Shown here one piece after another: positions 26,088 through 49,061 of a DNA stretch of 64,000 nt. The DNA comes from Deltaproteobacteria bacterium (lineage in GTDB: Bacteria; Bdellovibrionota; FAC87; UBA2466), in assembly GCA_016196825.1 (NCBI GenBank), contig JACPWY010000055.1:70-64069 (forward strand). Direction: 5' to 3'. Position numbers and translations under genes: made by a program. Under the pieces are notes generated by a model that was not told the origin of the DNA, searched no databases, and saw nothing but the letters and a program-made list of their open reading frames with translations. The first letter of the stretch is position 1. Each line of letters begins with the position of its first letter.

Positions 26088-27260
26088 TCAGGCTGCTTGC
26101 AAGGCTCCTGCCCGAGGCGGGACTGAGGAGACGATCTCTTTCACCCATTGGGTGAGCCCGCTTTCATAGTGTTTCCAGTCGAGAGCGGGGGCTGTTTTTC
26201 GGAGCGTCTCGGCCAGAGCCACCCTTTGCGCGGGATCTCGTATGAGCGCATGGAGGAGCGACTGAATCGCCTCCGCACTAAAAGCGGGCACGACAAATCC
26301 GTTTCGGCCGGTCTGAATTAGCTCCGCCGCTCCACAGTGGTTGGTTACGATGGGAATGAGGCCCGAGGCCATCGCCTGCGGGACGACGGTGGCAAATCCA
26401 TCGTGAATCGAGGGCAAGACGAAAACATCAAAATCGCGGATAAACTGAGCAAGCCTTGAGTGCGGCATCGGTGGAAAATGGGTGTAGTGTCCATAGTGGG
26501 CGAGTGTGTCGGCAAATTCCGGATCGACCGATCCCACCAACGTGAGGGTGAGATCACGGCCAGCCAGTGGCTTCGTGGCCTCAAGGAGATACTTCACCCC
26601 CTTCTGGATCGAAAGAGTTCCGAAATAGATCACCCGCAGTGGGCCGGGGGCCGTTCGCACGGGGCCGGAAGTGAACAGAGAGAGGTCGGCGCCGAGCCCC
26701 AAGACCTTGATCTTTTTCTCGGGGAAACCCTTTTCCAAAAACGTCCGTTTTGCAAATTCAGAGAGCACCAGAATCCGATCGCTCAATGCGTATTCCTTCA
26801 CCTCACGATTGCGGACAAAGGAATGTTCGGGGAAGCGCTGGTTGAATCGACGGTATTCCGCTTCGAGCACCTCGATCTGGAAGTCGATGTGGGCCGAGTC
26901 CCGAATCGTCACATACCGACGAGCATAGCCCTGCTCCATCACCTCGAGTCCAAACGATGACCATGTTAACGAAAGATCACTAGCACGATTGAGCCGCCGA
27001 ATCTCAGCCGCCATGGCCCTGCCAAACGCCGCCATCTTGAGCGCGCCGCCGTAGGCATCAAGCCCCAAAGCCTTCCACCCGCGGAAGAGAATCTCAGGCC
27101 AGAGGAAGGAGTGGACAGCCGCCGCTGGGATTCTCGGGAAGCGGGACTTGGGAAAGGAGGTGAAGAGTTGCGCGTCGAACTGTGCGCGCAGAGCCAAGAC
27201 CATACGATCAGCGTGAAAACGACCGCCAACACCCACATCAATGGAAAAGGGTTGAATCAA
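26088..27260 (-). CDS. glycosyltransferase family 1 (GT4-like)
   Basis: The C-terminal region FDVFVLPSIHDGFATVVPQAMASGLIPIVTNHCGAAELIQTGRNGFVVP is the classic GT1/GT4 EX7E nucleotide-sugar-binding region. Confidence 0.8.
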   Translation of the reverse strand: MIQPFSIDVGVGGRFHADRMVLALRAQFDAQLFTSFPKSRFPRIPAAAVHSFLWPEILFRGWKALGLDAYGGALKMAAFGRAMAAEIRRLNRASDLSLTWSSFGLEVMEQGYARRYVTIRDSAHIDFQIEVLEAEYRRFNQRFPEHSFVRNREVKEYALSDRILVLSEFAKRTFLEKGFPEKKIKVLGLGADLSLFTSGPVRTAPGPLRVIYFGTLSIQKGVKYLLEATKPLAGRDLTLTLVGSVDPEFADTLAHYGHYTHFPPMPHSRLAQFIRDFDVFVLPSIHDGFATVVPQAMASGLIPIVTNHCGAAELIQTGRNGFVVPAFSAEAIQSLLHALIRDPAQRVALAETLRKTAPALDWKHYESGLTQWVKEIVSSVPPRAGALQAA

Positions 27261-27420
27261 ATGGCCTCGGAATTAGGAGTCGGGAGGTTTTGCCTGCTTA
27301 ATAAGAATACCATCCACCCCAAGAGCTCGGCGTCGCGCCGCTTCCCAAGGATTTCGGCGTGTACTTAAGAAACCAGTTATACTGAATTCACGCCTCATCA
27401 CCGCTATTCCGGATAAAACC

Positions 27421-27885
27421 ATGGACAAGAAAACGCCGCCTGAGAGCGAAGTTCAGATAGTTGATCTGCAGCGCTACCGGAAAAACAAGAACGAAGAGCG
27501 ACGACGGGAGTACGAACGCGTGCTCTTCAATCGAATCTTAGGGGTGTATAGCTTCGCGGAGAAAAACTCCCTCAACCATATTGAGGTCATCGATATTAGT
27601 TACTCCGGTCTCAAGTTCCGGGAGGAGAATCCCGAGCGCCCGTTAAAGGCGGAAGAGAAGGTGGCCTTGCGCTTTTATTTCACTCCAAGCTCCTACCTCA
27701 AGGTGATCGTCGATGTGAAACGCGCCATCCCATTCAAAGATGACGATCGCGAGGGGATGGAATACGGCTGCCAACTCGATAAGTCCACAAAGTCCTACGA
27801 AGTCATTCGGGAGCTGATCGCCTTCATGTATAAGTACTCAGAAACAGCGTGTCAGGACACCAACCCGCCCATGATCTGGTTCTAA
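27421..27885 (+). CDS. PilZ domain protein (c-di-GMP receptor)
   Basis: RxxxR (RRREYER) followed by DxSxxG (DISYSGLKF) about 25 residues later. Length 154 aa. It lies 45 bp upstream of the giant gene on the same strand. Confidence 0.7.
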   Translation: MDKKTPPESEVQIVDLQRYRKNKNEERRREYERVLFNRILGVYSFAEKNSLNHIEVIDISYSGLKFREENPERPLKAEEKVALRFYFTPSSYLKVIVDVKRAIPFKDDDREGMEYGCQLDKSTKSYEVIRELIAFMYKYSETACQDTNPPMIWF

Positions 27886-27930
27886 TCCCTCAGCTCAATT
27901 CCGTTACTGCACTGTCCGATAAGAAGGGGA

Positions 27931-30900
27931 ATGTGTGTCTCGGGGAAAAATGTGCGTATTGGGCTGGTTTTGGTGGTTCTTGCCGCCCTGGCCAGCTGCC
28001 GATTCAACATGTCCGACCGATCTCCTTCGGGCGTCAGCTCGGTCACGAGTCCGGCCACCCCCTCCTCAACGACGGCGACCACCGCTGGAGGCGACACCTC
28101 CCTCACCTCGGTAACCGCCGGACCAGCCGTCAAACTGGCGGTCAATGGGCTTCCACCCTTTCAGGCGGGTGTTTGTGCTGGCCCCTTTACGATCACCGCA
28201 ATCGACGCCCACGGGAACGTCGCGACCCCTTCCAACAACACCGAGCTTTTCAAGCTCGAGGGCACCCCGCCCAACGCCATTTTTATTGATGTCAATTGCA
28301 CGGAGCTCGCCCCTGAAGGATCCGTTGTATCGGACTCTTCCGGCACCCGCGCTCTATTCTATGTGAACGGCACTCAAGCCTACTCCAAGGTGATCGCCGT
28401 CAACGGCGCCGGCGTGACGGGAACGTTTGGGATTCAAATCCTCAGTGGCACCCCCACCCGCCTTGAAGTGACTGCGCCAGCCGCCGTGTCGGCAGGCGAT
28501 TGCTTCGCAGGCGCCCTTTCACTCGTTGACAAAAATGGGAACGTCGCCACCGCCACAAAACGATTTTCCGCAGGCGTGCTCATTCATGGGCTTTCCAACG
28601 CCGGAGTTTTTTCTGATCCGCAGTGCTCCCAGCCGCTCGCCACGTTGGATTTCTCGGTGGGGACCTCCTCCCAGCCGTTTCATTTTCTCACACAGTCACC
28701 CGGCACCGGTTCCCTGGCCGCGCAAGCTCCGTCGGGACTGGAAGGAGGAAGCGCCAACCTCACCGTCTTCGTGGAAAATTCACCGCAGCTAGGCCTCATC
28801 CCTCCCCCGGGCCAGATGGTGGCCGGGCTATGTTCGGCATTTCGAATCGTTTCACTCGACACCGCCGGAAACACTCTGGTGACCCACAACGGCCTCCCCG
28901 TCACAGTGAGTTCCAAAACGAGCCAGCTCGTTCTCTTCTCCGATGCGGCGTGTTCCACTCCTCTCAATCCCGCCACAGTGACGCTTGCCGCGGAATCATC
29001 GACCAATCAATTTTTTGCCCGCAGCGAGCTTGCCCACACGGGGCAGGTGGCGGTCAGCGCCAGTGGGTATCTCTCTGCGACCGTCGCCCCCATTGTCGCG
29101 CCGGCCCCCGCAGTCTCTCTGTCGCTCGATTCTCTGCCCGACTCACTCACCATGGGCGGATGCATGACAGCTGTTGTGCGTTCCAAAGATCCGTTTGGAA
29201 ACGTATCGACCGTCCCGGTCGGTGTGCCGATCCTGATTTCCGGCTCAGGCACTGCCGCGACGGGAACCAATTTCTACGCCGGCGGCTCCTGCACGACCTC
29301 CGCCACCAAACAATTCACACTCGGCAATGGGTCCTCCCTCGCAGCCTTTTCATTCTCGCCTGGGAGCCCAGGGGCACTCACCATCACGCTCACCCCGAGC
29401 GGTCTCACCGGAAGTGGTGGAGCCACATCCACATCCGGCACTACGACGATCGCCCCCTCCCCCACTGTGCGCCTCTCGCTGAGCTCTTCGACAAGCGCCA
29501 TCATTGCGGGCCTCTGCGCCAAAATGTCTCTCTCAACCATCGACGCAGCCGGGACGGTAACGATGGCCCCCATCGACACCTCGGTCACTCTCTCAAATGA
29601 TCAGAGTCTGCAACCACTCTTTTTCTCGGACGCGTCGTGCTCCTCGGCCACATCCAATCTGATCGTGAGATCGGGGACGTCTTCCGCCGATTTTTACATT
29701 CAAAGCACAAAGATCAATGCAATCGTTGTCTCGGCCCAAGGGACCGATTCCACTGGAAAAGCGATCTCGACCTCAAAGGGAGTCGCCATCGTTGCAGCTG
29801 CGCCCTCTACGTTAAGCATCGGCTCGCTCGGAAGCGCCCCATCAGGAAAACTGTGCCTCGGCCCTGTCGCGGTCGACACCCTCGATCAATTCCGCAATCC
29901 AGCGATCGTTCCGAAGACCACATCATTCGCGCTGGAATCAACGGGAGCCGTCGAATTGCAATTCTCATCAAACTCGACCTGCTCTGACTCCATTAGCTCC
30001 CTCACGATCCCGGCGGGAAAAGGTGAAGGTGTCTTTTACGCCAAGGCCCAATCGGGAGGGGCGGTCTCATTTTCTATTTTGGGGGGAGACCTCCAGGGCT
30101 CGGGCGGCACCACGCTCAGCGATCCCCCCGCGCTGCACCTTGTGCTGGCAGGACCCTCATCGGCCTCAGCCACCGTCGGCACCTGCGTGGCCTTTCAGGT
30201 CGGGAGTGTCGACCCCACAAACACTCCTAAGATCTTTGATCCTAATACGATCACGGTCGGGGTCACTCCCACGACAAATGCAGTGTTTTTCTCGGACAGC
30301 AGCTGTGCAACGGGGCTGCCAAACAATCAAGTGACCATCAGCCCGGCGCTCAACCCCGCGCCTTTCTACTTCAAGTTCACGACGGCCCAGTCAATGACCA
30401 TCTCGGCCAACGGATCACTGAATTCACAGGGGGCGGGAAGCCAGCTTACGCTCACGCCAGCCAACCCTTCCCAGATTGTCTTGTCACCGATGGGTGCGGG
30501 CACCTTTTCGGCCTCGACTTGCGCGGGTCCCTATTCGGCTGAGGCGCAGGATAGTTTCGGTAACTCATCACCTGTGCGCTCAACGCTGCCATTCACTTTT
30601 CAACCCACGGGCGTGTCGGCCAGCTTCTACTCCGATGCGGCGTGCTCGACTTCAGGAGCGGCCATCGCAGCAGGCAAAACGTCCGGCCTTTTCTATATGA
30701 AGGGAGCCGAACCAGGGTCGCTCACCGTCTCAGTGGGCGCAACGTCGCTGCATAGCTCCTGGCGGATCTTCACCGTCGCAGCCGATGGCGCAGTGAAGCT
30801 CACGTTGCTCGGGCAACCGGTGACTCAGGCCTCATTCGGGTCGGTGAGCCAGGGGCAGACATCATCCCTCATCTTCACTCTGACCAATAGTTCGACCAGG

Positions 30901-33900
30901 ACGGCGGCGAGTAAAATCGCGGTGACGGTGAGCAGCAGCTCCTTTTCCGCCGCGCTTTCAACCGCACCCGCCGGTTGCAGCACCCTCACCGATCTCAAGC
31001 TAGCGCCGGGCCAACAGTGTGGATTCGGGGTCCTCTTCACCGCCAACAGCCAGGGCGCTGCCTCGGGATCACTCGACTACACCTTTTCGATGGGAGGCGC
31101 TTCTCAATCACAGTCGGTCTCTCTTTCCGGAACTGGCACCACCCCGCTCGCTGCAGTCCTCACAGCGTCTGCGCAGTCGATCGACTTTGGCATGCTCATG
31201 GCCGGCCAAACGACCAAACAGCATGTGACAGTGACCAATTCCGGAACTAGGGACGCCTCACAGATATCGCTCAGTGGAGTATCTGCTCCCTTCTCGGCCA
31301 GTTTTGAAAGCGGGTGCGCAACTCTAGCCCCGGGATCCGCATGTGACCTCACCCTCGCCGCTGCCCCCTCCACCTCGGGCAGCGCACAACAGACGCTCGT
31401 GATCGACTACTCCGATGGAACGGATCACACACCCAACCCTTCGACGGTGAGCCTCAAAGAGACGTCGAACCTACCAGCGGTACTGCAGGTCTCGAACTCA
31501 TCGCTTTCATTTCCAGCCACGGTCGTAAAGGGAACCTCCGGTGCGCAGACGCTGACAGTTACCAACATGGGAAGTCTTCCGGCCACGGAAGTCAGCTATT
31601 CCCTCTCCGGCTCGGCCTTCTCACTCAACAGCTCGAGCTGCCCGGCCACCCTGGATGCGTTCACGAGCTGCGCACTTTCGATCACCTTTAACCCAACCGC
31701 GCTGGGTTCCTTTTCGGACGTCCTCTCCATCAGTTACACGAGCTACGCTCAAGCCAAGGCCACCACCGTGGCGATCGTTTCCGGGGATTCGACTTCGCCT
31801 CCCCACTTGATCTTTAACCCCGCGCTGGGGACATTCGCTCCCACCGCCATCAACAAGGCAGCACCATCGGTCAGTCTACTCCTTACAAACTCCGGTAATG
31901 GCGATGCCCAAGGGATCACGCTTGCAACCTCCGCCCCTTTCTCCGTGAACTCCACCGAGTGCAGCATGCTCAACGCCGGACAATCGTGTTTCGTTAAGGT
32001 CGGTTTCACTCCGACTGCCGCGGGGTCCTTCTCGAGCACGCTCACGGCCAACTGCTCTAATGCTACGCTTGGGTGCGCGGCCACCACCGCCTCCCTCACT
32101 GGCAGCACGTTGCCTCAATCCTCCCTCACCCTGAGCGCAACCCAGCTCTCCTTTGGCCTCTTAACGATCGGCCAGACGATGACCGAGACCATTACGCTCA
32201 GCAACAGTGGCGCCTTAGGAAATCCCGCGATCCAACTCTCGACGCCGCAGCTGGGAGGCTCCAATTCGGCAGCGGCTCTGGCTCTCACTCATAGTTGCGG
32301 CACCACCCTGGCGAGCGGATCAAGTTGCACGGTTTCCGTCACCTTTAGTCCAACGAACGCCGGAACCTTTGACAACACTCTCGATATCGTTTGGAGCTCC
32401 GGCAACGGCCTCACTACATCAACCGTTGGTCTTTCCGCGTCAGCCCTCTCCGCGGCAAACGTCACGCTCTCTCCGGCAACGTCCAATTTTCCTGACACAG
32501 TTGTCGGTAATACGTCACAAGCAATCGCAGTCACCGTCTCTAATGGCGGTCAGAGCAGCGCGAAGGACATTGTGATTTCAGGCCCAACCTCGGTGTTCAT
32601 CCGCTCCGCCGCCACCTGCCCGCCCGAACCTTTCGCGCTCGCTGCTGGTGCCAATTGCACCGTTAGCTACACCTTTACCCCACCCGGTATAGGAAAGACG
32701 ACCCACTCCTTCGGAGGCACCTTTGCTGGCACTTCCGGCGCAACGAGTATCGGAAACATTTCTTTCTCCGGCACCGGCATTGCAACCGCCTCACTTGTCG
32801 TTGATGAAACATCTCTGAACTTCCCTCCCACATCCGTTGGAAAAAGCTCACAAGCGAGTCTTGTTTTCACGAACACCGGAAATGGTCCCGCCTCCCAAAT
32901 CAATTTAGCCAACAATCTCGCAAGTCCCTACTTTCTTTCGGGCCCGCTTTGCTCGTCGCTCGCTGCTGGAGCCCAATGCACCGTCACCATCACCTTCACC
33001 CCGGTTGCGATTGGCACATTTCCGAGTAACGTTCAGGTGCAATACTCCGACGGATCCACCCTCCAGAAAACTTCGAGCATCTCCCTCACGGGGACAACCG
33101 GCGGAAAGGTGAACGCGACCCCCTCGACTGTGAGTTTCTCCAACGTTGTCGTCGGGCAGACCAATCATCAAGATGTAACGATCACTAACAATGGCGCGGT
33201 CAGCCTATCCTTTTTGGCGGCAGGCATCGATCCGAACAGCAGCCCTGGCTTCAGCGTCAATCCAGGTGCTTGTGGGACGCTGTCAGTTGGACAATCATGC
33301 GAAATCGTTTTTAGCTTAAGTCCCAACGCTGTCTCGAACTCACTCAGCGGTTCCTCAACCGTGCGATTTTCCGACAGCGTCGGAAACGTTGTAACCGCGC
33401 CCCCCATTGCACTTTCCGGCACCTCCGTGGGACTCGCCAAGCTCACGGTCGCTCCCCAATCGCTGACATTCAGCGACACTGTCATCGGAACACAGTCCGC
33501 CACCCAAACTCTCACGATCACCAATACCGGTGTCGGTCAGGCCACAAAGATCGCGCCAGCGCTTCCAGCCGATTTTCTCAACTCAGGGGGAAGCTGCGGG
33601 GCAAGTCCCTTCTCCCTCTCACCCAATGCCCAATGCACCATTTCTCTCATCTTCAAGCCAACAGCGGCTGAGGACCTTTCCCAGGCCATCACCGGGACTT
33701 ACTCTAACGGAGTTGCCGATGACATCTTCAGCTTTGACGTGAGGGGAAATGGCCAAACACCCGGCAATCTTATGCTCTCAGTGGCTAGCTTAGATTTCGG
33801 TTCGATTGCTCTGGGCACGACCTCGCCGTTAAGAAGTGTCACTGTCTCCAACACCGGAGGGTCGGCCGCGACCCAAATCACAATCCTCAATCTCTCCCCG

Positions 33901-36900
33901 CCCTTTAAAAACCCCTCTTCGAGTTGCGGCGCTCAACCCTTTGCCCTTGCGGCTGGATCGAGTTGTGAGCTCGACTACGCATTCAATCCGACCTCGGCAG
34001 GCAATTCCACGGAAAAACTCGCGGTAAACTATAGCAACGGAGTCGGGAGCGGAACTCAGCGCAGCCTCAATCTCTCAGGTACGGGGATGGGAGGCAGTTT
34101 CTCCGCCCTGCCCAACCCACTCAATTTCAACAACACGCTCCTCGGCCAGACCGGCAACCTTTCGGTTACCGTCACCAACACTGGAGCGACCAACCTGAAT
34201 TTCGCCGGCGCCGGAATCAATACTGGAAGCGGCGCCGGCTACAGCATCGCGAATGGCAACTGCGGATCGCTTTCTACCGGGGCCACCTGCTCACTGACCT
34301 ACTCCTTCACTCCCACGGCCATCTCTAGCTCCTTCAGCGGATCCTCCACGATCCAGTTCACCGATAACATGGACAACGCAGTGTCGCAGGTGTTGCCCCT
34401 TTCCGCATCGTCTTCGGGGGTCGGCCTTCTCTCCTCTTCGAAAGCATCATTGAGCTTCGGCGATGTCACCGTGGGCAGTTCATCGGCCGCGCAAACGTTC
34501 ACGGTTACCAATATCGGCTCGGGCCCGGCGACCCAAATCTCGTGGAGCGGCCCATCGCCCGATTTTGTGGTCAACTATGGTTCGTGTGGCTCCAATGCCT
34601 CTCTTGCGGCGGGGGCCCAATGCACCGTCAGCCTCTCGCTGAAGCCCGCAGCGCCGGGAACTTTCAATCAAACCCTCACGGTTGGCTATTCCGACGGACA
34701 AACAACAACCACGGCAAACATGGTGACCGTCTCGGGAAGAGGCCTCGGCCCCGCCAATTTGGCTCTTTCACCCTCATCTCTCGATTTCAGTGGCATTGCG
34801 GTCGGTGCCACTTCTCCCACGAAGTTGGTGACGATCACAAACAGCGGCTCGGCCACTGCTTCGAACATTCTTCTCAACCCCACTCTCTCAGGCAATAGTT
34901 TCACCAAGGTCAGCTCCACCTGCGGGAACGAGCCCTTCGTTCTCGCCGCGGGGACAAATTGCCAAATCAATCTCGCCTTTTCGCCGGCGGTCGCGGGATC
35001 GGCCTCGCAGATCTATAGCGTGAGCTATTCCGATAGCGTTTCTCAACAAAGTGGCAGCACTCTGACGTTGAACGGAACCGGAATCGAGGCGGCCGTCCTC
35101 ACCACAAATCTGTCGAATGTTGTTTTCCCCTACACCGCTCTCGGTCAATCCTCGAGCGCAACGGTTGTCCTGACCAACGCGGGCGGAACCGATGCCACGC
35201 AAATCGCCCTGTCACCTTCCACGCTTCCAGCCCATTTCAGTTATGGGAACAGCACCTGCGACAGCACTCTGTCACCCGGCGCGACCTGCAGTCTCACCCT
35301 CAACTTCATTCCCAAAGTGAGCGGCACCTTCACGGCGTCTCTGCAGATCACTTACAATAATGGCACCCCCACGACGCCAACTCCGCCCTCCATAAGCTTA
35401 ACGGGAACTACCGCCGGCGCGTATTCCCTCACGACGGCCTCACTCGACTTCGGAGCAGTCCCAGTCGGGTCGAGCAAGAATCTCTCCCTGACCGTGACAA
35501 ATATCGGGGCTCCAACAATTACCTCCTCAACCCCAACGATGGACACCGGCTCCGATGCCGCCTTTCGGTTGATCAACTCGACATGCTCGACGCTCGCATC
35601 CGGGCAAAACTGTTTAATCACATATTCATTTCAGCCCACGACTGCGATGACGAACGCCGGAGGCGCCTCCACGCTGGCCTTCACCAATCCCGACAATAGC
35701 CCGCTCCCTTCCACTCAGGTGAGAATGACTGCTTCAGCCCCCGGTGTCGCGAGAATCACCGCCTCTCCGTCTACTCTGGCCTTTGGCCCCATCGCGGTGA
35801 ATGGCTCCTCCAGCCCCCAAACGCTCACTCTCACCAATGCCGGCACGGGCCCAGCCACCCAGCTCGCCTGGAGCGGGGTAACGAACGACTTTTCTATTGC
35901 CTTTAGCACTTGTCCCAATGGCTCCGCGCTTTCAGTCGGCGCGCAGTGCACGATTTCTGTCACTTTTAGACCAACATCAGCCGCCACATTCTCCCAATCC
36001 CTGGCACTCAGCTATTTCGATGGCACGGCCAATAGCAATCTCATCGCCTCTACACTCACGGGGCAGGGAGTGGGTGCGGGAGTGATGGCCTTAAGTCCTC
36101 TGAGCCTTGATTTCGGAAGCGTACTGGTGGGACAGACGAAAGCGCTCAATTTTGCGATCACGAACACGGGTACTGGTCCCATCACCAATGTTCAATTTTC
36201 ATCACCCGTCGCTTTGCCCTTTGCGACGGGCTCGTTGTGTTCATCCATTCAGCCGGGTGCCAGTTGCCAACTGAGCACGGCCTTTCTTCCGTCTGCGGCC
36301 GGAACCTTTCAGGCCACGGGCCAGCTCAGTTATTACGACGGCGCCTCAGCCCAGCTCTCGCCGGCGTTCACGCTCTCAGGGCACACCGGACCAGCTTTTA
36401 GGTTCAGTCCGACATCACTCAGTTTTGGAAACGTTGCCTATGGGACAACCTCGACGGCGCAGGCCATCACGATCACCAACACCGGCGGCACTTCCATTAA
36501 GCTGAATACCATTCTCTTCGACGGACAAAACTCTCCTCAAAATGGGTTCAGACTAGTCACCAGCAATTGCGGCACAACCCTCTCCCCAAACGGGATCTGC
36601 ACACTCTCGGCCACTTTCACTCCGGCGGCGGCCAACTCGGGTTACTCCTCCGTCTGGACAATCAGCTTCGTTGATGCCGTGACAAGTAGTAATCCCATCT
36701 CCGGGTCAATCATTCTGAGCGGTTCAGGCACGTCACCAGGAGCACTCTCAGCCAACCCAGCCTCTTTCTCCTATGGTACGGTGTCGCTCGGTTCAACAGC
36801 CAACACCACGATAGTCATTTCAAACCCAGGTGGAACATCGACTCTGATCACGGGGGTCACGGCTCTGGCGAGCCCTTTCAGGGCAGTCAATCAATGCACT

Positions 36901-39474
36901 GGGATTGCGTTGGCGCCGTCGGGCACCTGCCTCGTTCAGATCGCGTTCACCCCTTTGAGTGGAACCACGAGCTCCTGGCAGCAAAACTTGATCGTGAGCG
37001 GTCAGGCCGGTTCCACGCCCGTGAGCGTTTCGGTCCCGATCAGCGGCAACACCACCTCGGTCGGAGCTCTGAGATTTTCTCCCGCCTCGGTCGCCTTCCC
37101 GGCGACCGCGCTCAATTCGTTCGCGACCATGAACGTCTCCCTTTCCAACACCGGGGGAACGGCGATCACCTTGGGTGCTCTTCCGACGCTCACCCCTCCC
37201 TATTCGGTGAATGCAGCCAACTGCTCCGGAATCACACTTCTGCCCGGCTCAAACTGCACGCTCATCATTACGTTCACGCCGGTGAGCGGAGCGACGAATT
37301 TCAATCAGACTCTCACGGTGGCAGGCACCTCCGGGGGTGTTCCGCTTTCCGCCTCGCTCCCGGTGAGTGGATCAACATTATCCTCCGGTGTTCTCACACC
37401 GTCGGCCAGTACGTACAACTTTGGTTCACTCCTGGCGGGACAGACCCGCACCTCCACGATCACTTGGACAAATACGGGAGGCGCCTCGCTCACAGCCACT
37501 TCGGCATCAGGTCTCTCCAGTCCCTTCACCCTCACCGCCAACAACTGCCTGAACGTGACACTGCAGGCGGGGATGAGCTGCTCGACCACGGTCACGTTCA
37601 CATCGCCCGGCGGGGCCGACATGGCGTGGAGCCAAGTTCTTAGACTCGCGTACGCGACGGCGGGAACCTCCGCCACATCGTCAGTTACTTACATTGCCGC
37701 GGCGTCCGCTACTCCCGGGACATTCACCCCAAGCCCGACAAGCTATAACTTTGGCACGATTAGCTCCGGCACATCGAGGAGCGTAAACATCACGTGGACT
37801 AACACCGGTGGCGCCACATCTCAGGCCCTCTCCTTCACGGGCTACTCGGCGCCCATCACGCTGACTTCAGACGGGTGCACGGGAAGGGCGCTCGCGGTCG
37901 GCGGCTCCTGCACCACGATGTTTACATTCAGCCCCACAACCGGGGGCCCGAGCTTCACCCGCACGGTGATCGCGCAATATACAACCAACGGGGCGGTTTT
38001 ATCGTCGAGCATTACCCTGGCAGGATCCATCGCTGCTCTTCCCGGCACGCTCACCGCAAGCCCGACAAGTTACAACTTTGGAAGTTTGCCCCCAGGAGGC
38101 ACCGGCTCCTCGACGGTGACCTGGACCAACACGGGCGGGTCGAGCCTCACTATCGCACCTGCGACAGGCATTTCGAGTCCGTTCACTCTGACTTCCAATT
38201 CATGCTCGGCTGCCACTCTTCTTCCAGGAGCGAGGTGCAGCACAACGGTCATATTCACGGCGCCTTTCGGGACGACCACCTCGTGGAACCAGATTCTAAG
38301 GCTCTCCTACTCGACGAACGGAGCTTCCGCGTCCACTTCGGTGGCATACTACGCCGCCACTACCGCCCCGCCGGGGACGCTCACGCCCAACACAGCCTCC
38401 TACAATTTCGGGTCGGTCAGCGTCGGCTCCGCCGTCCGCCAATGTTTCACCGAGACAAATACTGGTGGGGCCGCCATTACACTGCCGGCCGTTCCACGCA
38501 CGCTCTCCATCGCCGGCGGCTTCAATATTGTCGTCGACTCCTGCATCGGATCATCCCTGCAACCGAGCCAATCGTGTCAGGTGTGTCTCTCCTTTGCGCC
38601 GACAATCGCGGGCACCATGACCGCAACCTTCTCAGAAACTTTCACAAATACCGATGGCACCAACACGCGATCGGGCGGCACTATTAAGCTGATGGGAAAC
38701 GGCGTGGCACCCTCACCCTCCCCCACTCCCACCTATGGCTTCCTCCGCATCACTCCGACCCAATACAATTTTCCGGCCACCGCCGTGAATTATTCCAAGC
38801 TCCAAGTGTTCACTGTCACCAACACGGGCTCTGGCCCTGCCACCATCAACAATGTCCAGTACGGGGAGAATCCGGGGTGGCCGCAAAAGGCAATCGTCTA
38901 TAGCACCAACTGCTGTTCTGGTCTCAACACAACCACCGGGGCATGCACCCCCACAAACCTCAACCCTTACAGCTCTTGCACCGTCTCCCTCAATTTCTTG
39001 CCCAATATCTACATGATTCTGTCCAACTATGCCTTCACGGTCACCACGAACCTGATGGGGGTAGGTGGACTCTATAGTGGCCAATCCGTAATGGTCCAGG
39101 GCTCCATGGGGGTACTTTCGAATCCGCCGACCTCGGGAGCCCGGTGGTTCGCCACGTCCGGATCGACGACACTCCATGCTGCCGTGGGCGCTCAATCCGC
39201 CGCCACCACGGTCGTGCTTCAATCATTTTCGACGACGGCCAGAGCACCAACGATACCGGGTGTCGGCCCCGGATTCATGAGTCTCTCCGCCAACTACATC
39301 AATAGCCCGTTTCTGCTCACAAGCTCGTGCCCCATTGGGGGTAGCGTCGGGAGTTGTTACGCGACCGTCCGTTGCACACCTCGGGCCACCGGCTCGGTCA
39401 CTCTCCCGCTGACGGCGACCTTCAGTGACGGCACCCCCACGGCCACCCTCCCCTTCACCTGTGCCTCCCCTTAA
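27931..39474 (+). CDS. giant surface lipoprotein (3,847 aa) made of about 25 tandem HYDIN/VesB/CFA65-type (choice-of-anchor-D-like) Ig domains plus about 8 N-terminal Cys-containing repeats; putative adhesin
   Basis: Single uninterrupted 11.5-kb ORF. N-terminal lipoprotein signal (alt. GTG 27952: MRIGLVLVVLAALASC). Residues about 60-900 hold about 8 repeats with FxSDxxCS...FY motifs. Residues about 950-3600 hold about 25 repeats of about 100 aa with the pattern LxFGxVxVGxTSxxxxTVTN(T/S)Gxxx(A/L)TxIxxxGxSxPFxxxxxxCGxxLAxGAxCTxSVxFxPTxAGTFxxTLxxxY. That is, a (T/S)N(T/S)G motif plus a conserved Cys pair per module. The C-terminal 300 aa are unique and Cys-containing. Confidence 0.85.
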   Translation: MCVSGKNVRIGLVLVVLAALASCRFNMSDRSPSGVSSVTSPATPSSTTATTAGGDTSLTSVTAGPAVKLAVNGLPPFQAGVCAGPFTITAIDAHGNVATPSNNTELFKLEGTPPNAIFIDVNCTELAPEGSVVSDSSGTRALFYVNGTQAYSKVIAVNGAGVTGTFGIQILSGTPTRLEVTAPAAVSAGDCFAGALSLVDKNGNVATATKRFSAGVLIHGLSNAGVFSDPQCSQPLATLDFSVGTSSQPFHFLTQSPGTGSLAAQAPSGLEGGSANLTVFVENSPQLGLIPPPGQMVAGLCSAFRIVSLDTAGNTLVTHNGLPVTVSSKTSQLVLFSDAACSTPLNPATVTLAAESSTNQFFARSELAHTGQVAVSASGYLSATVAPIVAPAPAVSLSLDSLPDSLTMGGCMTAVVRSKDPFGNVSTVPVGVPILISGSGTAATGTNFYAGGSCTTSATKQFTLGNGSSLAAFSFSPGSPGALTITLTPSGLTGSGGATSTSGTTTIAPSPTVRLSLSSSTSAIIAGLCAKMSLSTIDAAGTVTMAPIDTSVTLSNDQSLQPLFFSDASCSSATSNLIVRSGTSSADFYIQSTKINAIVVSAQGTDSTGKAISTSKGVAIVAAAPSTLSIGSLGSAPSGKLCLGPVAVDTLDQFRNPAIVPKTTSFALESTGAVELQFSSNSTCSDSISSLTIPAGKGEGVFYAKAQSGGAVSFSILGGDLQGSGGTTLSDPPALHLVLAGPSSASATVGTCVAFQVGSVDPTNTPKIFDPNTITVGVTPTTNAVFFSDSSCATGLPNNQVTISPALNPAPFYFKFTTAQSMTISANGSLNSQGAGSQLTLTPANPSQIVLSPMGAGTFSASTCAGPYSAEAQDSFGNSSPVRSTLPFTFQPTGVSASFYSDAACSTSGAAIAAGKTSGLFYMKGAEPGSLTVSVGATSLHSSWRIFTVAADGAVKLTLLGQPVTQASFGSVSQGQTSSLIFTLTNSSTRTAASKIAVTVSSSSFSAALSTAPAGCSTLTDLKLAPGQQCGFGVLFTANSQGAASGSLDYTFSMGGASQSQSVSLSGTGTTPLAAVLTASAQSIDFGMLMAGQTTKQHVTVTNSGTRDASQISLSGVSAPFSASFESGCATLAPGSACDLTLAAAPSTSGSAQQTLVIDYSDGTDHTPNPSTVSLKETSNLPAVLQVSNSSLSFPATVVKGTSGAQTLTVTNMGSLPATEVSYSLSGSAFSLNSSSCPATLDAFTSCALSITFNPTALGSFSDVLSISYTSYAQAKATTVAIVSGDSTSPPHLIFNPALGTFAPTAINKAAPSVSLLLTNSGNGDAQGITLATSAPFSVNSTECSMLNAGQSCFVKVGFTPTAAGSFSSTLTANCSNATLGCAATTASLTGSTLPQSSLTLSATQLSFGLLTIGQTMTETITLSNSGALGNPAIQLSTPQLGGSNSAAALALTHSCGTTLASGSSCTVSVTFSPTNAGTFDNTLDIVWSSGNGLTTSTVGLSASALSAANVTLSPATSNFPDTVVGNTSQAIAVTVSNGGQSSAKDIVISGPTSVFIRSAATCPPEPFALAAGANCTVSYTFTPPGIGKTTHSFGGTFAGTSGATSIGNISFSGTGIATASLVVDETSLNFPPTSVGKSSQASLVFTNTGNGPASQINLANNLASPYFLSGPLCSSLAAGAQCTVTITFTPVAIGTFPSNVQVQYSDGSTLQKTSSISLTGTTGGKVNATPSTVSFSNVVVGQTNHQDVTITNNGAVSLSFLAAGIDPNSSPGFSVNPGACGTLSVGQSCEIVFSLSPNAVSNSLSGSSTVRFSDSVGNVVTAPPIALSGTSVGLAKLTVAPQSLTFSDTVIGTQSATQTLTITNTGVGQATKIAPALPADFLNSGGSCGASPFSLSPNAQCTISLIFKPTAAEDLSQAITGTYSNGVADDIFSFDVRGNGQTPGNLMLSVASLDFGSIALGTTSPLRSVTVSNTGGSAATQITILNLSPPFKNPSSSCGAQPFALAAGSSCELDYAFNPTSAGNSTEKLAVNYSNGVGSGTQRSLNLSGTGMGGSFSALPNPLNFNNTLLGQTGNLSVTVTNTGATNLNFAGAGINTGSGAGYSIANGNCGSLSTGATCSLTYSFTPTAISSSFSGSSTIQFTDNMDNAVSQVLPLSASSSGVGLLSSSKASLSFGDVTVGSSSAAQTFTVTNIGSGPATQISWSGPSPDFVVNYGSCGSNASLAAGAQCTVSLSLKPAAPGTFNQTLTVGYSDGQTTTTANMVTVSGRGLGPANLALSPSSLDFSGIAVGATSPTKLVTITNSGSATASNILLNPTLSGNSFTKVSSTCGNEPFVLAAGTNCQINLAFSPAVAGSASQIYSVSYSDSVSQQSGSTLTLNGTGIEAAVLTTNLSNVVFPYTALGQSSSATVVLTNAGGTDATQIALSPSTLPAHFSYGNSTCDSTLSPGATCSLTLNFIPKVSGTFTASLQITYNNGTPTTPTPPSISLTGTTAGAYSLTTASLDFGAVPVGSSKNLSLTVTNIGAPTITSSTPTMDTGSDAAFRLINSTCSTLASGQNCLITYSFQPTTAMTNAGGASTLAFTNPDNSPLPSTQVRMTASAPGVARITASPSTLAFGPIAVNGSSSPQTLTLTNAGTGPATQLAWSGVTNDFSIAFSTCPNGSALSVGAQCTISVTFRPTSAATFSQSLALSYFDGTANSNLIASTLTGQGVGAGVMALSPLSLDFGSVLVGQTKALNFAITNTGTGPITNVQFSSPVALPFATGSLCSSIQPGASCQLSTAFLPSAAGTFQATGQLSYYDGASAQLSPAFTLSGHTGPAFRFSPTSLSFGNVAYGTTSTAQAITITNTGGTSIKLNTILFDGQNSPQNGFRLVTSNCGTTLSPNGICTLSATFTPAAANSGYSSVWTISFVDAVTSSNPISGSIILSGSGTSPGALSANPASFSYGTVSLGSTANTTIVISNPGGTSTLITGVTALASPFRAVNQCTGIALAPSGTCLVQIAFTPLSGTTSSWQQNLIVSGQAGSTPVSVSVPISGNTTSVGALRFSPASVAFPATALNSFATMNVSLSNTGGTAITLGALPTLTPPYSVNAANCSGITLLPGSNCTLIITFTPVSGATNFNQTLTVAGTSGGVPLSASLPVSGSTLSSGVLTPSASTYNFGSLLAGQTRTSTITWTNTGGASLTATSASGLSSPFTLTANNCLNVTLQAGMSCSTTVTFTSPGGADMAWSQVLRLAYATAGTSATSSVTYIAAASATPGTFTPSPTSYNFGTISSGTSRSVNITWTNTGGATSQALSFTGYSAPITLTSDGCTGRALAVGGSCTTMFTFSPTTGGPSFTRTVIAQYTTNGAVLSSSITLAGSIAALPGTLTASPTSYNFGSLPPGGTGSSTVTWTNTGGSSLTIAPATGISSPFTLTSNSCSAATLLPGARCSTTVIFTAPFGTTTSWNQILRLSYSTNGASASTSVAYYAATTAPPGTLTPNTASYNFGSVSVGSAVRQCFTETNTGGAAITLPAVPRTLSIAGGFNIVVDSCIGSSLQPSQSCQVCLSFAPTIAGTMTATFSETFTNTDGTNTRSGGTIKLMGNGVAPSPSPTPTYGFLRITPTQYNFPATAVNYSKLQVFTVTNTGSGPATINNVQYGENPGWPQKAIVYSTNCCSGLNTTTGACTPTNLNPYSSCTVSLNFLPNIYMILSNYAFTVTTNLMGVGGLYSGQSVMVQGSMGVLSNPPTSGARWFATSGSTTLHAAVGAQSAATTVVLQSFSTTARAPTIPGVGPGFMSLSANYINSPFLLTSSCPIGGSVGSCYATVRCTPRATGSVTLPLTATFSDGTPTATLPFTCASP

Positions 39475-39501
39475 GGGCCCTAAATTCTCCACTGTCGGAT
39501 T

Positions 39502-40257
39502 TTATCGGAGTTTTTTCGGATCGATTCCCCAGGCGTCAAGGATGGCCTTCTCATCCTCGGCCGACACGGCCTTCTTGAATTTGGCGCTCGAGCGGCCCTT
39601 CACCCGGCTCTCGCATTCTTTCCAGGTCGAGTGCCGATAGGCGATATCGCCGATAAGACTCAGGTAAGAATAGGCCGCCACCTTCTCGTGTTTGCGTGAT
39701 TTTGAGGCGGCCGGTTTCTCGGTCTCCTCGGGAATGTCGTGCACCGGCACCGTGTATTTCAGAAGCGGGCCATCGAAAAGGCTCGGTCGGCGTTTTTGCG
39801 AGAAGTCCACCGCAATGGCATCAGCGCGGTCGTTGCCCGCAATCCCCGCGTGCCCCTTCACGTAGCGCCAACTCACTTTACCATCCGCTCCACGCGCCCG
39901 AGCCACACTCAAGAGTGCCTGCCACAATTCCCGATTGGCGACATCCTTCCCGTCGACCGTTTTCCACCCTTTTTTCATCCAGCCCCAGATCCACCCTGTC
40001 ATCCCCTGGATCACATACTTGGAATCGGTGTGGATGAAGACCTCCTCGCTTCGATCGCGCACAAACTCCAAAGTCCGAATCGCCGCCGTGAGCTCCATCC
40101 GATTGTTAGTGGTCTCAGGATCTCCGCTCCCAATCTCTCGCACCCGACCCTCGGGGAAAACAATCACAGCCCCCCAGCCCCCCGGCCCCGGATTCCCGGA
40201 GCAAGCCCCGTCACAAAACACAATAATGTTACTTAGAGCGCTCTTAATCTCTTCCAC
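39502..40257 (-). CDS. rnhA: ribonuclease HI with C-terminal extension
   Basis: The N-terminus IVFCDGACSGNPGPGGWGAVI...TNNRMELTAAIRTLE...IHTDSKYV matches the RNase H catalytic core (D, E, D ...H/D). An extra 90-aa C-terminal region resembles a hybrid-binding or viroplasmin-type domain. Confidence 0.8.
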   Translation of the reverse strand: MEEIKSALSNIIVFCDGACSGNPGPGGWGAVIVFPEGRVREIGSGDPETTNNRMELTAAIRTLEFVRDRSEEVFIHTDSKYVIQGMTGWIWGWMKKGWKTVDGKDVANRELWQALLSVARARGADGKVSWRYVKGHAGIAGNDRADAIAVDFSQKRRPSLFDGPLLKYTVPVHDIPEETEKPAASKSRKHEKVAAYSYLSLIGDIAYRHSTWKECESRVKGRSSAKFKKAVSAEDEKAILDAWGIDPKKLR

Positions 40258-40280: not shown

Positions 40281-40574
40281 TCACTTTCGAAAGGGCGGAA
40301 TCACGAGTGGCTTGGGCTCGAGGGCTGCGGGTTGGTTGGCGCGAACGGACGGCGCCGCGGGTGGAAACTCCAGTATCACGCGAAATGTTTGACCGTTTCG
40401 TCGACAGGTCATCTCGACGGCGTCCCCGGGCCCTACCCCGATGAGCGCGCGCTCCAGATCGAGGCGGTCGCGCACCGCAATGCCTCGCACTTCCTTTTGA
40501 GGAAGTCCGACTGGTCGACGAGTGGCAATTTTTGGAATAAGCTGGATCTCTTTGCGACGCAGCGTAGCAAGCAC
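40281..40574 (-). CDS. small hypothetical protein (possible PDZ-like fold)
   Basis: 97-aa ORF divergent from mmsA. There is weak PDZ-like GVGPGDAV...NG pattern only. Confidence 0.25.
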   Translation of the reverse strand: MLATLRRKEIQLIPKIATRRPVGLPQKEVRGIAVRDRLDLERALIGVGPGDAVEMTCRRNGQTFRVILEFPPAAPSVRANQPAALEPKPLVIPPFRK

Positions 40575-40590
40575 AGTTTTAGGGGGAGTT

Positions 40591-42039
40591 ATGGTCCGAA
40601 ATTACATTGATGGTCGTTGGGTTGATTCGACGGGGCGGGAATCTGTCGACATCATCAACCCCGCCACCGAAGAGGTGCTCGACAAATGTCCACTCGGTAC
40701 AGCCGAGGATGTAAACCGCGCGGTAGCGGCCGCCCAAGCGGCCTTTCCCGCCTGGCGCCAGACGCCGGTCATCGATCGCGTCCAGTATCTTTTCAAACTC
40801 AAAAGCCTGCTCGAGGCCACCTTCGACGAAATCGTCGCCCTCAATACCGCTGAACACGGCAAGACACTGGTCGAATCGCGCGGCGACGTCCGCCGCGGTA
40901 TCCAGATGGTGGAAACTGCCTGCGGCATGCCGAGCCTCATGATGGGCCAATGCTCCGAAGACGTAGCAGCGGGTATCGACTCGATGAGCGTGCGCCAGCC
41001 GATGGGAGTCTTCGCCGCCATCACGCCGTTTAATTTTCCAGCGATGGTTCCCTTTTGGTTTTGGCCATTCGCCATCGCGAGCGGCAACACATTCGTCCTC
41101 AAACCTTCCGAGCGCGTGCCACTCACCCAAGTTAAAATCTTTGGCCTCCTAGAAAAGACCGGCCTACCCAAAGGCGTGATGAATCTGGTCGCGGGCAGCA
41201 AGGATGTGGTCAATGCACTCTGCACTCACCCCGATGTGAAGGGCGTCTCGTTCGTCGGCTCAACTCCGGTCGCGAAACACGTCTACCAAACCGGCACGTC
41301 GCACGGAAAAAGGGTCCAGGCCCTGGGCGGCGCGAAAAATTTCATGGTGATCCTCCCCGACGCCGCGATGGACACCTCCATCAGCACCTGCCTCGAATCG
41401 ATCATCGGCTGCGCCGGGCAGAGGTGCCTCGCAGGCTCCGTGATCATCTCGGTCGGCGATTGCGCCAAGACGGTGAGCGATCGCATCGTACGGCTCGCCA
41501 GCGATGTGCGCATAGGCAACGGCGCCGACCCGCAAACCCACATGGGGCCCGTGATCTCGCGCTCTTCGCTAGAACGGATCCACGGCCTCATCCAATCTGC
41601 GGCCCTTGACGGCGCGCAGATTCTCCTCGATGGCCGGCAGACCGCAGGCCGCGGCTATTTCTTAAAACCCACGGTCATCGCGGGCGTGACTCCCAAGATG
41701 CGCATCGCCCAGGAGGAGATCTTTGGCCCGGTCGTCTGCCTGGCGAACACCGACTCGCTCGCAAGCGCCATCCAGTGGATCAACTCGTCGCCGTTTGCCA
41801 ACACGGCTTCCCTTTTCACCAACTCAGGCGCAGCGGCCCGACAGTTCAGCTACGAGGCGGCCCCGGCCATGTTAGGCCTCAACATTGGGGTCCCGGCCCC
41901 GATGGCCTATTACTCCTTTGGCGGCGCGAAAGATTCCTTTTTTGGTGACGTGAAGGCGCACGGAGCACAGGGCGTGCTCTTCTTCACCGATCAGAAGGTC
42001 ACCATCTCGCGCTGGAAGAAGAACTCAAACATCTGGTGA
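40591..42039 (+). CDS. mmsA: CoA-acylating methylmalonate/malonate-semialdehyde dehydrogenase
   Basis: AAITPFNFPAMVPFWFWPFAIASGNTFVLKPSE and catalytic Cys context GCAGQRCLAGS are MmsA hallmarks. ATG 40591 is preceded by AGGGGGAG. Confidence 0.85.
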   Translation: MVRNYIDGRWVDSTGRESVDIINPATEEVLDKCPLGTAEDVNRAVAAAQAAFPAWRQTPVIDRVQYLFKLKSLLEATFDEIVALNTAEHGKTLVESRGDVRRGIQMVETACGMPSLMMGQCSEDVAAGIDSMSVRQPMGVFAAITPFNFPAMVPFWFWPFAIASGNTFVLKPSERVPLTQVKIFGLLEKTGLPKGVMNLVAGSKDVVNALCTHPDVKGVSFVGSTPVAKHVYQTGTSHGKRVQALGGAKNFMVILPDAAMDTSISTCLESIIGCAGQRCLAGSVIISVGDCAKTVSDRIVRLASDVRIGNGADPQTHMGPVISRSSLERIHGLIQSAALDGAQILLDGRQTAGRGYFLKPTVIAGVTPKMRIAQEEIFGPVVCLANTDSLASAIQWINSSPFANTASLFTNSGAAARQFSYEAAPAMLGLNIGVPAPMAYYSFGGAKDSFFGDVKAHGAQGVLFFTDQKVTISRWKKNSNIW

Positions 42040-42043
42040 GACC

Positions 42044-43426: not shown

Positions 43427-43428
43427 AA

Positions 43429-44295
43429 ATGGCAAGACCCGTGAAAATTGGCCTCATCCAGATGGCAAGCAAATTGCCGACAAGCGCTTCGTGCGAAGAG
43501 CACAGAAAGGCTATGACCGAGGCGCATGTCACCTACATCGAAGAGGCGGCCAGAAAGGGCGTGAATATTCTCTGCATGCAGGAGATCTTCACCGGCCCCT
43601 ATTTCTGCCCCTCGCAGGAGACGAAATGGTACGGCCTCACCGAGAAGATCCCCGAAGGCCCCACGACCCAGCTCATGATGGAGCTCGCCAAGAAGCACAA
43701 GATGGTGATCGTGGTCCCGATCTATGAGGAGCACATGACCGGCGTTTACTACAACACGGCCGCCGTCATCGATGCTGATGGAAAGTATCTTGGTAAATAC
43801 AGAAAGAATCATATCCCGCAGGTGAAGGGCTTCTGGGAGAAGTTTTTCTTTAAGCCAGGCAACCTCGGCTACCCGGTTTTCAACACCGCCTTTGGCAAAG
43901 TCGGCGTCTACATCTGCTACGATCGGCATTTTCCTGATGGCGCGCGCTGCCTCGGGCTCAATGGCGCTGAAATCGTTTTCAATCCCTCCGCCACGGTGGC
44001 GGGCTTGTCGGAATACCTTTGGGAGATCGAGCAGCCGGCACATGCCGTTGCCAACGGTTACTTCATCGCCGCTATCAACCGCATCGGCCGCGAAGAGCCG
44101 TGGAACATCGGCGATTTCTACGGCCAAAGCTACGTGGCCAGTCCGCGGGGAAAAATTCTTAAGAAAGCCTCGCGCGACAAGGACGAGCTCCTCATCGCCG
44201 ACATCGATCTCGATGAGGTGAAGGAAATTCGAGACCTCTGGCAGTTTTATCGGGACAGGCGACCCGAGACCTATGGCGCCATCACGGAAATTTAA
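43429..44295 (+). CDS. carbon-nitrogen hydrolase family protein, beta-ureidopropionase-like (N-carbamoyl-beta-alanine amidohydrolase)
   Basis: Nitrilase-superfamily E-K-C triad context: KIGLIQM..., ...YRKNHIP..., VGVYICYDRHFPDGAR. Its position between dihydropyrimidinase and aminotransferase supports the call. Confidence 0.75.
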   Translation: MARPVKIGLIQMASKLPTSASCEEHRKAMTEAHVTYIEEAARKGVNILCMQEIFTGPYFCPSQETKWYGLTEKIPEGPTTQLMMELAKKHKMVIVVPIYEEHMTGVYYNTAAVIDADGKYLGKYRKNHIPQVKGFWEKFFFKPGNLGYPVFNTAFGKVGVYICYDRHFPDGARCLGLNGAEIVFNPSATVAGLSEYLWEIEQPAHAVANGYFIAAINRIGREEPWNIGDFYGQSYVASPRGKILKKASRDKDELLIADIDLDEVKEIRDLWQFYRDRRPETYGAITEI

Positions 44296-44305
44296 GGGGA
44301 AAGAC

Positions 44306-46887: not shown

Positions 46888-46937
46888 GGGGCCAGTCGCC
46901 TTCCAATATTGAAAGGTGCCGGGTCCTAGAAATGACC

Positions 46938-47521: not shown

Positions 47522-47615
47522 TCATATAGTATATCTATATATAATATGCTTTTCAAGCTGGATGGAGTTTTCAGCAGTAGGCGTAATTGCCGAAATTGTC
47601 CTATAGAATAATCAC

Positions 47616-49055
<1,440 letters not shown>

Positions 49056-49061
<6 letters not shown>

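Follow-up and report, generated by a model that had tools for sequence, protein, structure and literature searches.

Choice-of-anchor D proteins (NF012200, PF22544, PF15780) are named for the variety of sorting signals found at the C-termini of their members. In the literature on "choice-of-anchor D" we found nothing about giant proteins of this type, nor any test of their function. A C-terminal Ig-fold domain is present in VesB (PDB ID: 4LK4) and VesC (6BQM); VesB carries one such domain on a trypsin-like protease, and its anchor is of the GlyGly-CTERM/rhombosortase type. Eukaryotic HYDIN, CFAP65/74/47 and CEP192, which are cytoplasmic ciliary or centrosomal proteins, are giant single polypeptides in which this fold recurs in long tandem series. 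Large exported proteins with tandem Ig-like modules also include the length-variable adhesins of the Rib/alpha-C, SasG/Aap, Bap and Esp type. Their repeats are more than 90% identical at the nucleotide (nt) level, and copy number varies between strains.

Our present results concern a window of 64,000 nucleotides, the whole stretch of DNA that was analysed, and one giant gene within it (Table 1). We propose that the striking 8-kb "repeat" region of this gene consists of copies of a known domain that diverged long ago, and that the array is stable and presents no assembly hazard. The gene most probably encodes a single very large exported lipoprotein whose choice-of-anchor D array is old, long diverged and not expanding. 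The source is an uncultured Deltaproteobacteria MAG, for which NCBI lists the protein as MBI3295740.1, "choice-of-anchor D domain-containing protein", starting at GTG 27952 and 3,840 aa long; the domain type of the array was known and annotated by NCBI before this analysis. The repeat region would form the body of the lipoprotein, which from its N-terminus would consist of a lipobox signal peptide, eight uncatalogued beta-rich repeats and 25 (plus one degenerate) choice-of-anchor D modules. Within its very large family the protein is ordinary and deeply diverged, and its significance beyond annotation is small.

Table 1. Features of the giant gene and its neighbourhood (positions in the window).
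Feature	Position	Strand	Basis
GGDEF-FHA cyclase	18072-18986		
GT4 glycosyltransferase, divergently transcribed	26088-27260		
PilZ-domain gene, 46 nt upstream of the giant gene, same strand	27421-27885	+	
Giant ORF, 3,847 aa	27931-39474	+	ORF and translation
Lipoprotein-type signal peptide MRIGLVLVVLAALAS, followed by C; lipobox L-A-S-C	27952-27999	+	Read directly from translation
Eight N-terminal repeats, ~107 aa each, uncatalogued type	28114-30774	+	
25 tandem choice-of-anchor D/ASH-type Ig-like modules, M01-M25	30805-39102	+	HMM segmentation, family profiles, AF2
M08-M17, old three-module super-repeat (M8-9-10, M11-12-13, M14 interposed, M15-16-17)	33100-36387	+	Offset identities, NJ
M21-M22-M23, most self-similar subgroup, earlier taken for recent copies	37384-38361	+	
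Degenerate 26th module, aa 3749-3845	39175-39465	+	Own module HMM, E = 0.0024

The export signal was recognized by the lipobox pattern [LVI][ASTVI][GAS]C after a hydrophobic h-region. In the translation, MRIGLVLVVLAALASC presents such an h-region and then the lipobox L-A-S-C, as in substrates of SPase II, and the predicted lipidated residue is Cys23, counted on the ATG-started protein. Members of NF012200 typically carry a C-terminal sorting signal (PEP-CTERM, T9SS, LPXTG, MYXO-CTERM and similar were considered), although it is not formally required. Here none is detectable after the degenerate module, where no sorting-signal family of NCBIfam matched at E ≤ 0.01, and in its place the protein has the lipobox at its N-terminus. 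Pfam matches nothing in the last 123 aa, and the C-terminus (…LPFTCASP) is without a hydrophobic tail. A giant adhesin of the T1SS/RTX type was also considered; it was rejected because RTX and T1SS features are missing and the signal found is a lipobox at the N-terminus.

Segmentation with our own module HMM gave 25 clear modules of 104-123 aa (~107 aa), covering aa 959-3724, and a weak 26th one; the NF012200 match likewise falls into 25 stretches. A first-pass annotation of the sequence had described about 25 tandem modules of about 100 aa, and this count is borne out. The array end given there, 38520, lies inside M24; the array itself reaches 39102 and, counting the degenerate module, 39465; that module has kept the F..(L)T..C…GSC…P..G half and lost the TNxG motif. 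Asn30, Cys55 and Cys66 (M21 numbering) are invariant in 25/25 modules, Asn30 belonging to the (T/S)N(T/S)G motif. The motif and the Cys pair reported earlier are thus confirmed, while the reported distance of about 25 residues between the two Cys is not: they are 9-14 residues apart (mode 9-11), and 25 residues separate the Asn at position 30 from the first Cys at position 55.

Assignment to the family is based on scores far above its cutoffs: 814.4 bits for NF012200 "choice-of-anchor D" (cutoff 45; E = 8.5e-251), 475.5 bits for PF22544, HYDIN/VesB/CFA65-like Ig (gathering threshold 25.5), and 394.2 bits for PF15780, ASH (gathering threshold 27). All 25 modules match, the predicted fold and the NCBI name are identical, and the consensus …F G.v.vG.…t.tvtNtG…F…..C….L.pG.sC.v.v.F.P…G is common to the family and these modules. 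An AF2 model of M21, calculated from the alignment of the 25 modules, has eight strands and a pLDDT of 96.6. In Foldseek it comes closest to the Ig domain of V. cholerae VesB (4LK4; TM 0.84, rmsd 1.8 Å, 107 columns), with ASH/PapD-like domains of CEP192 (ASH domain 6FVI, TM 0.75) and HYDIN (2YS4 and 2E6J) next. The module profile matches Hydin, FAP65/74, VesB and CEP192 in the PDB. The modules are predicted to be Ig-like (PapD/MSP-like) beta-sandwiches of the fold of PF22544 and PF15780, in agreement with the Ig fold suggested at first reading. Whereas VesB has a single domain of this kind, the present protein has 25-26 in tandem and lacks a catalytic domain. Homology to HYDIN, CFAP65/74/47 and CEP192 is at the profile level (E = 3e-40 to Hydin); the cytoplasmic location of these proteins differs from that of an exported lipoprotein, and no common function is implied.

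In VesB the positions that align with the Cys pair of the modules are likewise occupied by Cys, whereas in one domain alignment with Hydin they face a non-Cys residue or a gap. Among 2,741 related modules from 265 proteins, 1,649 have both Cys, 902 have neither and only 190 have one alone. A short-range disulfide staple in each module is plausible because the pair is invariant, the VesB Cys are aligned with it, the two Cys co-occur and the protein bears a signal for export as a lipoprotein. Each module probably contains one such bond, linking Cys 9-14 residues apart and closing the loop before strand 6.

The modules are highly diverged from each other: any two of them share on average 28.0 ± 5.1% of aa and 41.1 ± 3.6% of nt positions, against module means of 38-49% aa identity in five other giant choice-of-anchor D proteins. 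The most similar pair, M21 and M23 (58% aa, 60% nt; 5.9 SD over the aa background), is not adjacent, and M22, which lies between them, is 40% identical to M21 and 42% to M23 (aa). In the NJ module tree M21 and M23 are sisters at 100% bootstrap with M22 as outgroup, and terminal branches are long. The earlier claim that C-proximal modules resemble each other more than upstream ones holds for M21-M23 only, as the mean for M19-M25 is 30% and that for M1-M18 is 29.5%. Several upstream pairs are also raised: M2-M14 (43%) and, three modules apart within the super-repeat, M8-M11, M9-M12 and M10-M13 (44, 43 and 43%). At offset 4 the super-repeat identities are 34, 40 and 34%. Bootstrap values there are 100 for M8/M11 (78 with M15), 70 for M10/M13 and 64 for M9/M12/M16. 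The array would have grown through duplications in the distant past, several modules at a time in some cases, giving rise to the M8-10/M11-13/M15-17 unit and the pairs M19/M20 and M2/M14; M21-M23 would be its youngest or most constrained group.

Judged by sequence identity, most modules appear about equally close to siblings in the array and to modules of unrelated organisms: for most of them the best match among foreign modules (34-47%, in one case 31%) and that among siblings (32-46%) fall in the same range. Adjacent tandem domains are reportedly kept below about 40% identity, which avoids misfolding, a principle ascribed to Wright et al. in 2005. The high divergence between neighbouring domains of the array fits this principle.

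Synonymous sites bear on the age of even the closest pair. Between M21 and M23, pS is 0.67 and dS has reached saturation at about 1.7; every tested pair has a dS of at least about 1.7. At identical residues the two modules use the same codon in a fraction of 0.42 of cases, near the 0.35 expected from codon usage (0.24-0.48 in other pairs). Since synonymous sites are saturated, the 58% similarity at the protein level is no proof of recent duplication, and the inference that it implies one is corrected here. By these measures M21-M23 appear to be old duplicates in an array that is not expanding now. As saturation affects all pairs, a younger age of M21/M23 and mere stronger constraint are inseparable by dS. 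It is possible, if doubtful, that the two are no younger than other modules and that purifying selection on a common binding or structural role has slowed their divergence. Their dN of 0.39, compared with 0.5-1.1 in other pairs, agrees with this, and a lipid anchor at the N-terminus would make the C-terminal modules distal and potentially ligand-facing. On the other hand, M22 is much less similar despite its position between the two, no ligand or partner is known, and the M22-outgroup topology is equally explained by duplication order.

The N-terminal repeats differ in type: they show a D..GN motif and an invariant Cys pair of their own, whose members lie about 41 aa from each other. Pfam gave no match even at E ≤ 1, on which ground Big_1/invasin identity was rejected, and a sequence search of the PDB returned nothing specific. 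AF2 gave an all-beta model (pLDDT 71), with only generic Ig-like or macroglobulin-like Foldseek matches. Seven homologues were found; all those with a source name come from Myxococcota MAGs.

As to function, we infer a lipid-anchored, rod-like, multi-Ig fibre of the cell envelope or surface, for example an adhesin or a matrix-binding protein. The PilZ-domain gene and the giant gene are possibly co-transcribed; promoter and terminator scans around the giant gene found no more sites than in shuffled sequence. An unlikely alternative to a surface adhesin or fibre is a periplasmic or matrix scaffold tied to exopolysaccharide production, on which the adjacent PilZ protein would impose control by c-di-GMP. 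The closeness and common strand of the PilZ gene, the divergent GT4 glycosyltransferase and the GGDEF-FHA cyclase (Table 1) agree with such a scaffold, all of them belonging to the gene neighbourhood of one genome. Returning to the fibre, a still bolder picture, which we consider rather improbable, would have the ordered array, which is not homogenised (M8-10/M11-13/M15-17 and distal M21-M23), as functional architecture and not as a relic of duplication: a lipid-anchored rod with position-specific modules that would bind a periodic partner (exopolysaccharide, for example, or the surface of a neighbouring cell) under c-di-GMP control via PilZ, with the N-terminal repeats representing an uncatalogued Ig-like family restricted for the most part to Myxococcota-like bacteria.

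Occasional gene conversion (concerted evolution) is very unlikely to be what keeps M21 and M23 alike. Modules of other giants are more uniform (in P0128, for example, mean 49% and maximum 71%), and therefore homogenisation may occur in the family. Against it, M21 and M23 have no nt tracts in common: when each is compared with every other module, the longest exact match is below 12 nt for M21 and 13 nt for M23. Further counterevidence comes from the saturated synonymous sites, from direct repeats that at best reach 47 nt at 83% identity, and from the lack, between any two modules, of exact common words longer than 16 nt. The scenario of the first-pass annotation, in which M21-M23 are recent tandem duplicates of an array that expands and contracts and is under-counted by short reads, can point to the high aa identity and full bootstrap of M21/M23, but is effectively refuted by their 60% nt identity, saturated dS, codon sharing near expectation and non-adjacent position, by the 16-nt limit on common words, by Tandem Repeats Finder, which found no repeat of module length, and by the copies described below.

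The near-identical nt repeats of actively expanding proteins are absent, the maxima here being 60% nt identity and a 16-nt word. Ongoing repeat expansion is not supported: no nt tract is of a length on which slippage or homologous recombination could act, and nothing in the module DNA would be able to drive slippage or unequal recombination at present. This separates the array from the adhesins of the Rib/alpha-C, SasG/Aap, Bap and Esp type; no copy-number variation is seen in the four near-clonal copies compared.

These copies are the window, a second NCBI MAG and two Logan short-read assemblies. Both Logan assemblies are 100% nt-identical to the window across the whole gene, and the second MAG protein has equal length and three aa substitutions; with differences of 0-3 aa, the four copies are near-clonal, which gives the comparison little power. 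The length variability predicted earlier was not seen among them, equal as they are in length. Repeat number was compared on these four only, as no more distant orthologue was found. Scans of genome and metagenome contigs with the C-terminal modules found no relative, and an exhaustive phmmer search of 1.84 billion representatives gave high identity in the protein's own cluster only, the next best being 33-36%. A homologue search with the C-terminal 804 aa yielded proteins of at most 1,407 aa at ≤ 35% and did not return the query itself, so that its index seemingly misses giants. The warning that short reads may collapse the gene also fails, as three short-read assemblies gave an identical gene; it assembles unambiguously from such data.

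Two further points may be mildly useful. The N-terminal repeat type is absent from Pfam, and giant choice-of-anchor D proteins, yet without experimentally assigned function, are extremely common. They account for 7,588 cluster representatives at E ≤ 0.001 and reach 7,259 aa in length.

The whole repeat region lies in a single ORF on the + strand (27931-39474, 3,847 aa), whose product is listed at NCBI as MBI3295740.1 (3,840 aa) and already named "choice-of-anchor D domain-containing protein". It scores 814 bits against NCBIfam NF012200 (choice-of-anchor D, cutoff 45), 475 bits against Pfam PF22544 (HYDIN/VesB/CFA65-like Ig) and 394 bits against PF15780 (ASH), and the related Cep192 and CFAP models match as well. 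The giant protein belongs to a known, already annotated kind and is unusual only in how diverged its modules are. The first-pass annotation had counted about 25 modules, and 25 are found both by our own HMM segmentation and by NF012200 (M1-M25, numbered from N- to C-terminus). Its coordinates were roughly correct, except that their end falls within M24, short of the real array end. Without exception, 25/25 modules keep the TNxG Asn and both Cys; the spacing of about 25 residues ascribed to the Cys pair is in fact that from Asn to the first Cys, the two Cys being 9-14 residues apart.

Features of the giant protein (aa of the 3,847-aa ORF) and of neighbouring genes
Feature	Protein (aa)	Window (nt)	Strand	Remarks
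N-terminal repeats	62-948	28114-30774	+	eight, ~107 aa each, type unlike M1-M25
M1-M25	959-3724	array end 39102	+	25 modules, 104-123 aa (HMM segmentation)
Degenerate 26th module	3749-3845		+	HMM segmentation
PilZ-domain gene		27421-27885	+	46 nt upstream of giant gene, same strand
GT4 glycosyltransferase		26088-27260	-	divergent from giant gene
GGDEF-FHA diguanylate cyclase		18072-18986	-	9 kb upstream of giant gene
Putative catabolic cluster		40522-49061 (whole cluster)	+	aldehyde dehydrogenase, dihydropyrimidinase, carbon-nitrogen hydrolase, class-III aminotransferase
Putative catabolic cluster (continued)			+	DHO_dh + 4Fe-4S protein (dihydropyrimidine-dehydrogenase-like), cytosine/uracil permease

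Modules near 37,400-38,400 had been taken for recent duplicates of an array still expanding. Raised similarity is indeed present there, but it concerns exactly three modules, M21-M23 (37384-38361), and not the C-terminal end as a whole. M21 and M23, which are not neighbours in the array, share 58% of amino acids and 60% of nucleotides, and M22 is 40% and 42% identical in amino acids to M21 and M23, respectively, against an all-pairs background of 28.0 ± 5.1% (aa) and 41.1 ± 3.6% (nt). Block averages are 30% for M19-M25 and 29.5% for M1-M18, and upstream pairs are raised too (M8/M11 44%; M9/M12, M10/M13 and M2/M14 43% each). In the neighbour-joining tree of modules, M21 and M23 are sisters (bootstrap 100%) with M22 as outgroup (86%), and every terminal branch is long.

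Synonymous sites speak against a recent origin of this pair. The proportion of synonymous differences between M21 and M23 is 0.67, giving a saturated dS of ~1.7, indistinguishable from other tested pairs (dS at least 1.65, several undefined with pS > 0.75). The same codon is used at 42% of their 62 identical residues, close to the 35% predicted by codon usage alone and within the 24-48% of other pairs. Exact words common to two modules reach 16 nt at most (M7/M12), and no word shared by M21 and M23 occurs among the matches listed, the smallest of which is 12 nt. Their dN is 0.39, compared with 0.5-1.1 in other pairs; because dS is saturated, a somewhat younger pair is not separable from a more constrained one, and in either case the duplication is old. 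Tandem Repeats Finder detected no module-length repeat in 27000-40000, and the best direct repeats, located at conserved motif positions, reach at most 47 nt at 83% identity. Slippage or homologous unequal exchange has no nucleotide substrate in the module array, and with such short repeats and shared words the idea of ongoing expansion is not borne out.

An older history is visible as a higher-order pattern absent from the first-pass annotation, a three-module super-repeat at 33100-36387 (+). In the identity matrix, offset 3 joins M8 with M11 (44%), M9 with M12 (43%) and M10 with M13 (43%), and offset 4 joins M11 with M15 (34%), M12 with M16 (40%) and M13 with M17 (34%). Bootstrap values are 100 for M8/M11 (78 with M15), 70 for M10/M13 and 64 for M9/M12/M16. 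An old three-module unit has been copied twice (M8-9-10, M11-12-13, M15-16-17), with M14 interposed. M19/M20 form a further supported old pair (bootstrap 88%), and the M2/M14 pairing is weaker (43% aa, bootstrap 54%).

All adjacent modules are at most 42% identical, which fits the known dissimilarity of neighbouring domains in tandem arrays, reportedly a safeguard against inter-domain misfolding. For most modules, the best matches in foreign organisms (34-47%, one 31%) cover the same identity range as the best siblings do (32-46%); M21/M23 alone clearly exceed it (59% vs 44%). An exhaustive phmmer run against 1.84 billion cluster representatives recovered the protein's own cluster, followed solely by matches at 33-36% identity; the choice-of-anchor D family numbers 7,588 representatives at E ≤ 0.001 and 422 at E ≤ 1e-30, with lengths up to 7,259 aa. 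In five other giant members the module mean is 38-49%, whereas the 28% found here marks the most divergent modules. One of them, P0128 (7,259 aa, 54 modules, mean 49%), has the more homogenised array imagined in the first-pass annotation. P0128 and P0129 (5,535 aa) have 47-54 far more uniform modules (mean 44-49%, maximum 71%), and these two would be better candidates for truly dynamic repeat arrays. The C-terminal end of P0128 shows RCC1-like repeats by eye.

The gene assembles cleanly from short reads, since it is present in full in each of two independent Logan assemblies of short reads (SRR12113416, SRR12113417), which match the window at 100% identity over 17.6 and 15.5 kb, and a second MAG protein, MBI1860568.1, equals MBI3295740.1 in length with three substitutions. 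The suggested collapse is thus not seen; nor is length variation among the four copies, which are all near-clonal and hence a weak test of long-term variability. No more distant orthologue emerged, either from the phmmer search or when the C-terminal modules were run against GTDB species genomes and JGI metagenomes.

The suggested Ig fold is supported, because the AlphaFold2 model of M21 (25-module alignment as input, pLDDT 96.6) is an eight-strand sandwich whose nearest Foldseek neighbour is the Ig-fold domain of Vibrio cholerae VesB (4LK4, TM 0.84, rmsd 1.8 Å), followed by CEP192 and HYDIN ASH/PapD-like domains. The 25-module profile likewise matched solved structures of Hydin (E = 3e-40), FAP65/74/47, VesB and CEP192. 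Judging from sequence, a disulfide within each module is plausible: the Cys pair is invariant in the giant protein, and the positions of VesB that align with it are also Cys (…FSVLSDGCStKVTLATGESCSVEV…). Among 2,741 modules of 265 related proteins, both Cys occur in 1,649, neither in 902 and one only in 190.

The N-terminal repeats share a D..GN motif and an invariant pair of Cys distinct from that of M1-M25, spaced by ~41 residues. Neither Pfam families nor PDB sequences match these repeats; their AlphaFold2 model is all-beta with moderate pLDDT (71), and Foldseek gave generic Ig-like or macroglobulin-like matches only (E ≥ 0.017). Seven homologues were found at E < 1e-5; the three for which a source is named are from Myxococcota MAGs and are annotated as MopE-related or beta-helix proteins. 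These repeats may form an uncatalogued Ig-like family.

The N-terminus, M(V)RIGLVLVVLAALAS-C, reads by eye as a lipoprotein-type signal with lipobox L-A-S-C, and NCBIfam and Pfam searches recognised no C-terminal sorting signal. The protein would be exported by Sec and lipidated at Cys23, its ~34 beta-sandwich domains in series forming a long flexible rod anchored N-terminally, with M21-M25 and the degenerate module at the distal end. It may be an adhesin or matrix fibre; literature search found no experimental work on the choice-of-anchor D family, so this reading is drawn from comparison with other surface proteins of multi-Ig type. The PilZ, GT4 and GGDEF-FHA neighbours hint at a possible c-di-GMP/polysaccharide context.

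The gene start is ambiguous between ATG 27931 (Logan gene calls, 3,847 aa) and GTG 27952 (NCBI, 3,840 aa); a G-rich stretch lies upstream of both, and the choice leaves signal peptide and lipobox unchanged. GC skew is strongly negative across the gene (-0.14 to -0.21, 28001-40000), likely caused by a coding strand C-rich from Thr, Ser, Ala and Pro codons, and should not be taken for a replication signal. Elsewhere in the window, ORF 4964-8623 (+, 1,219 aa) has no Pfam family at E ≤ 1e-5, and the protein collection contains no exact match to it, perhaps owing to a different start call. The putative catabolic cluster (40522-49061) resembles one for reductive pyrimidine catabolism. An RNase H gene (39502-40257, -) converges on the 3' end of the giant gene; its mechanical ORF has 251 aa, versus 198 aa in public gene calls.
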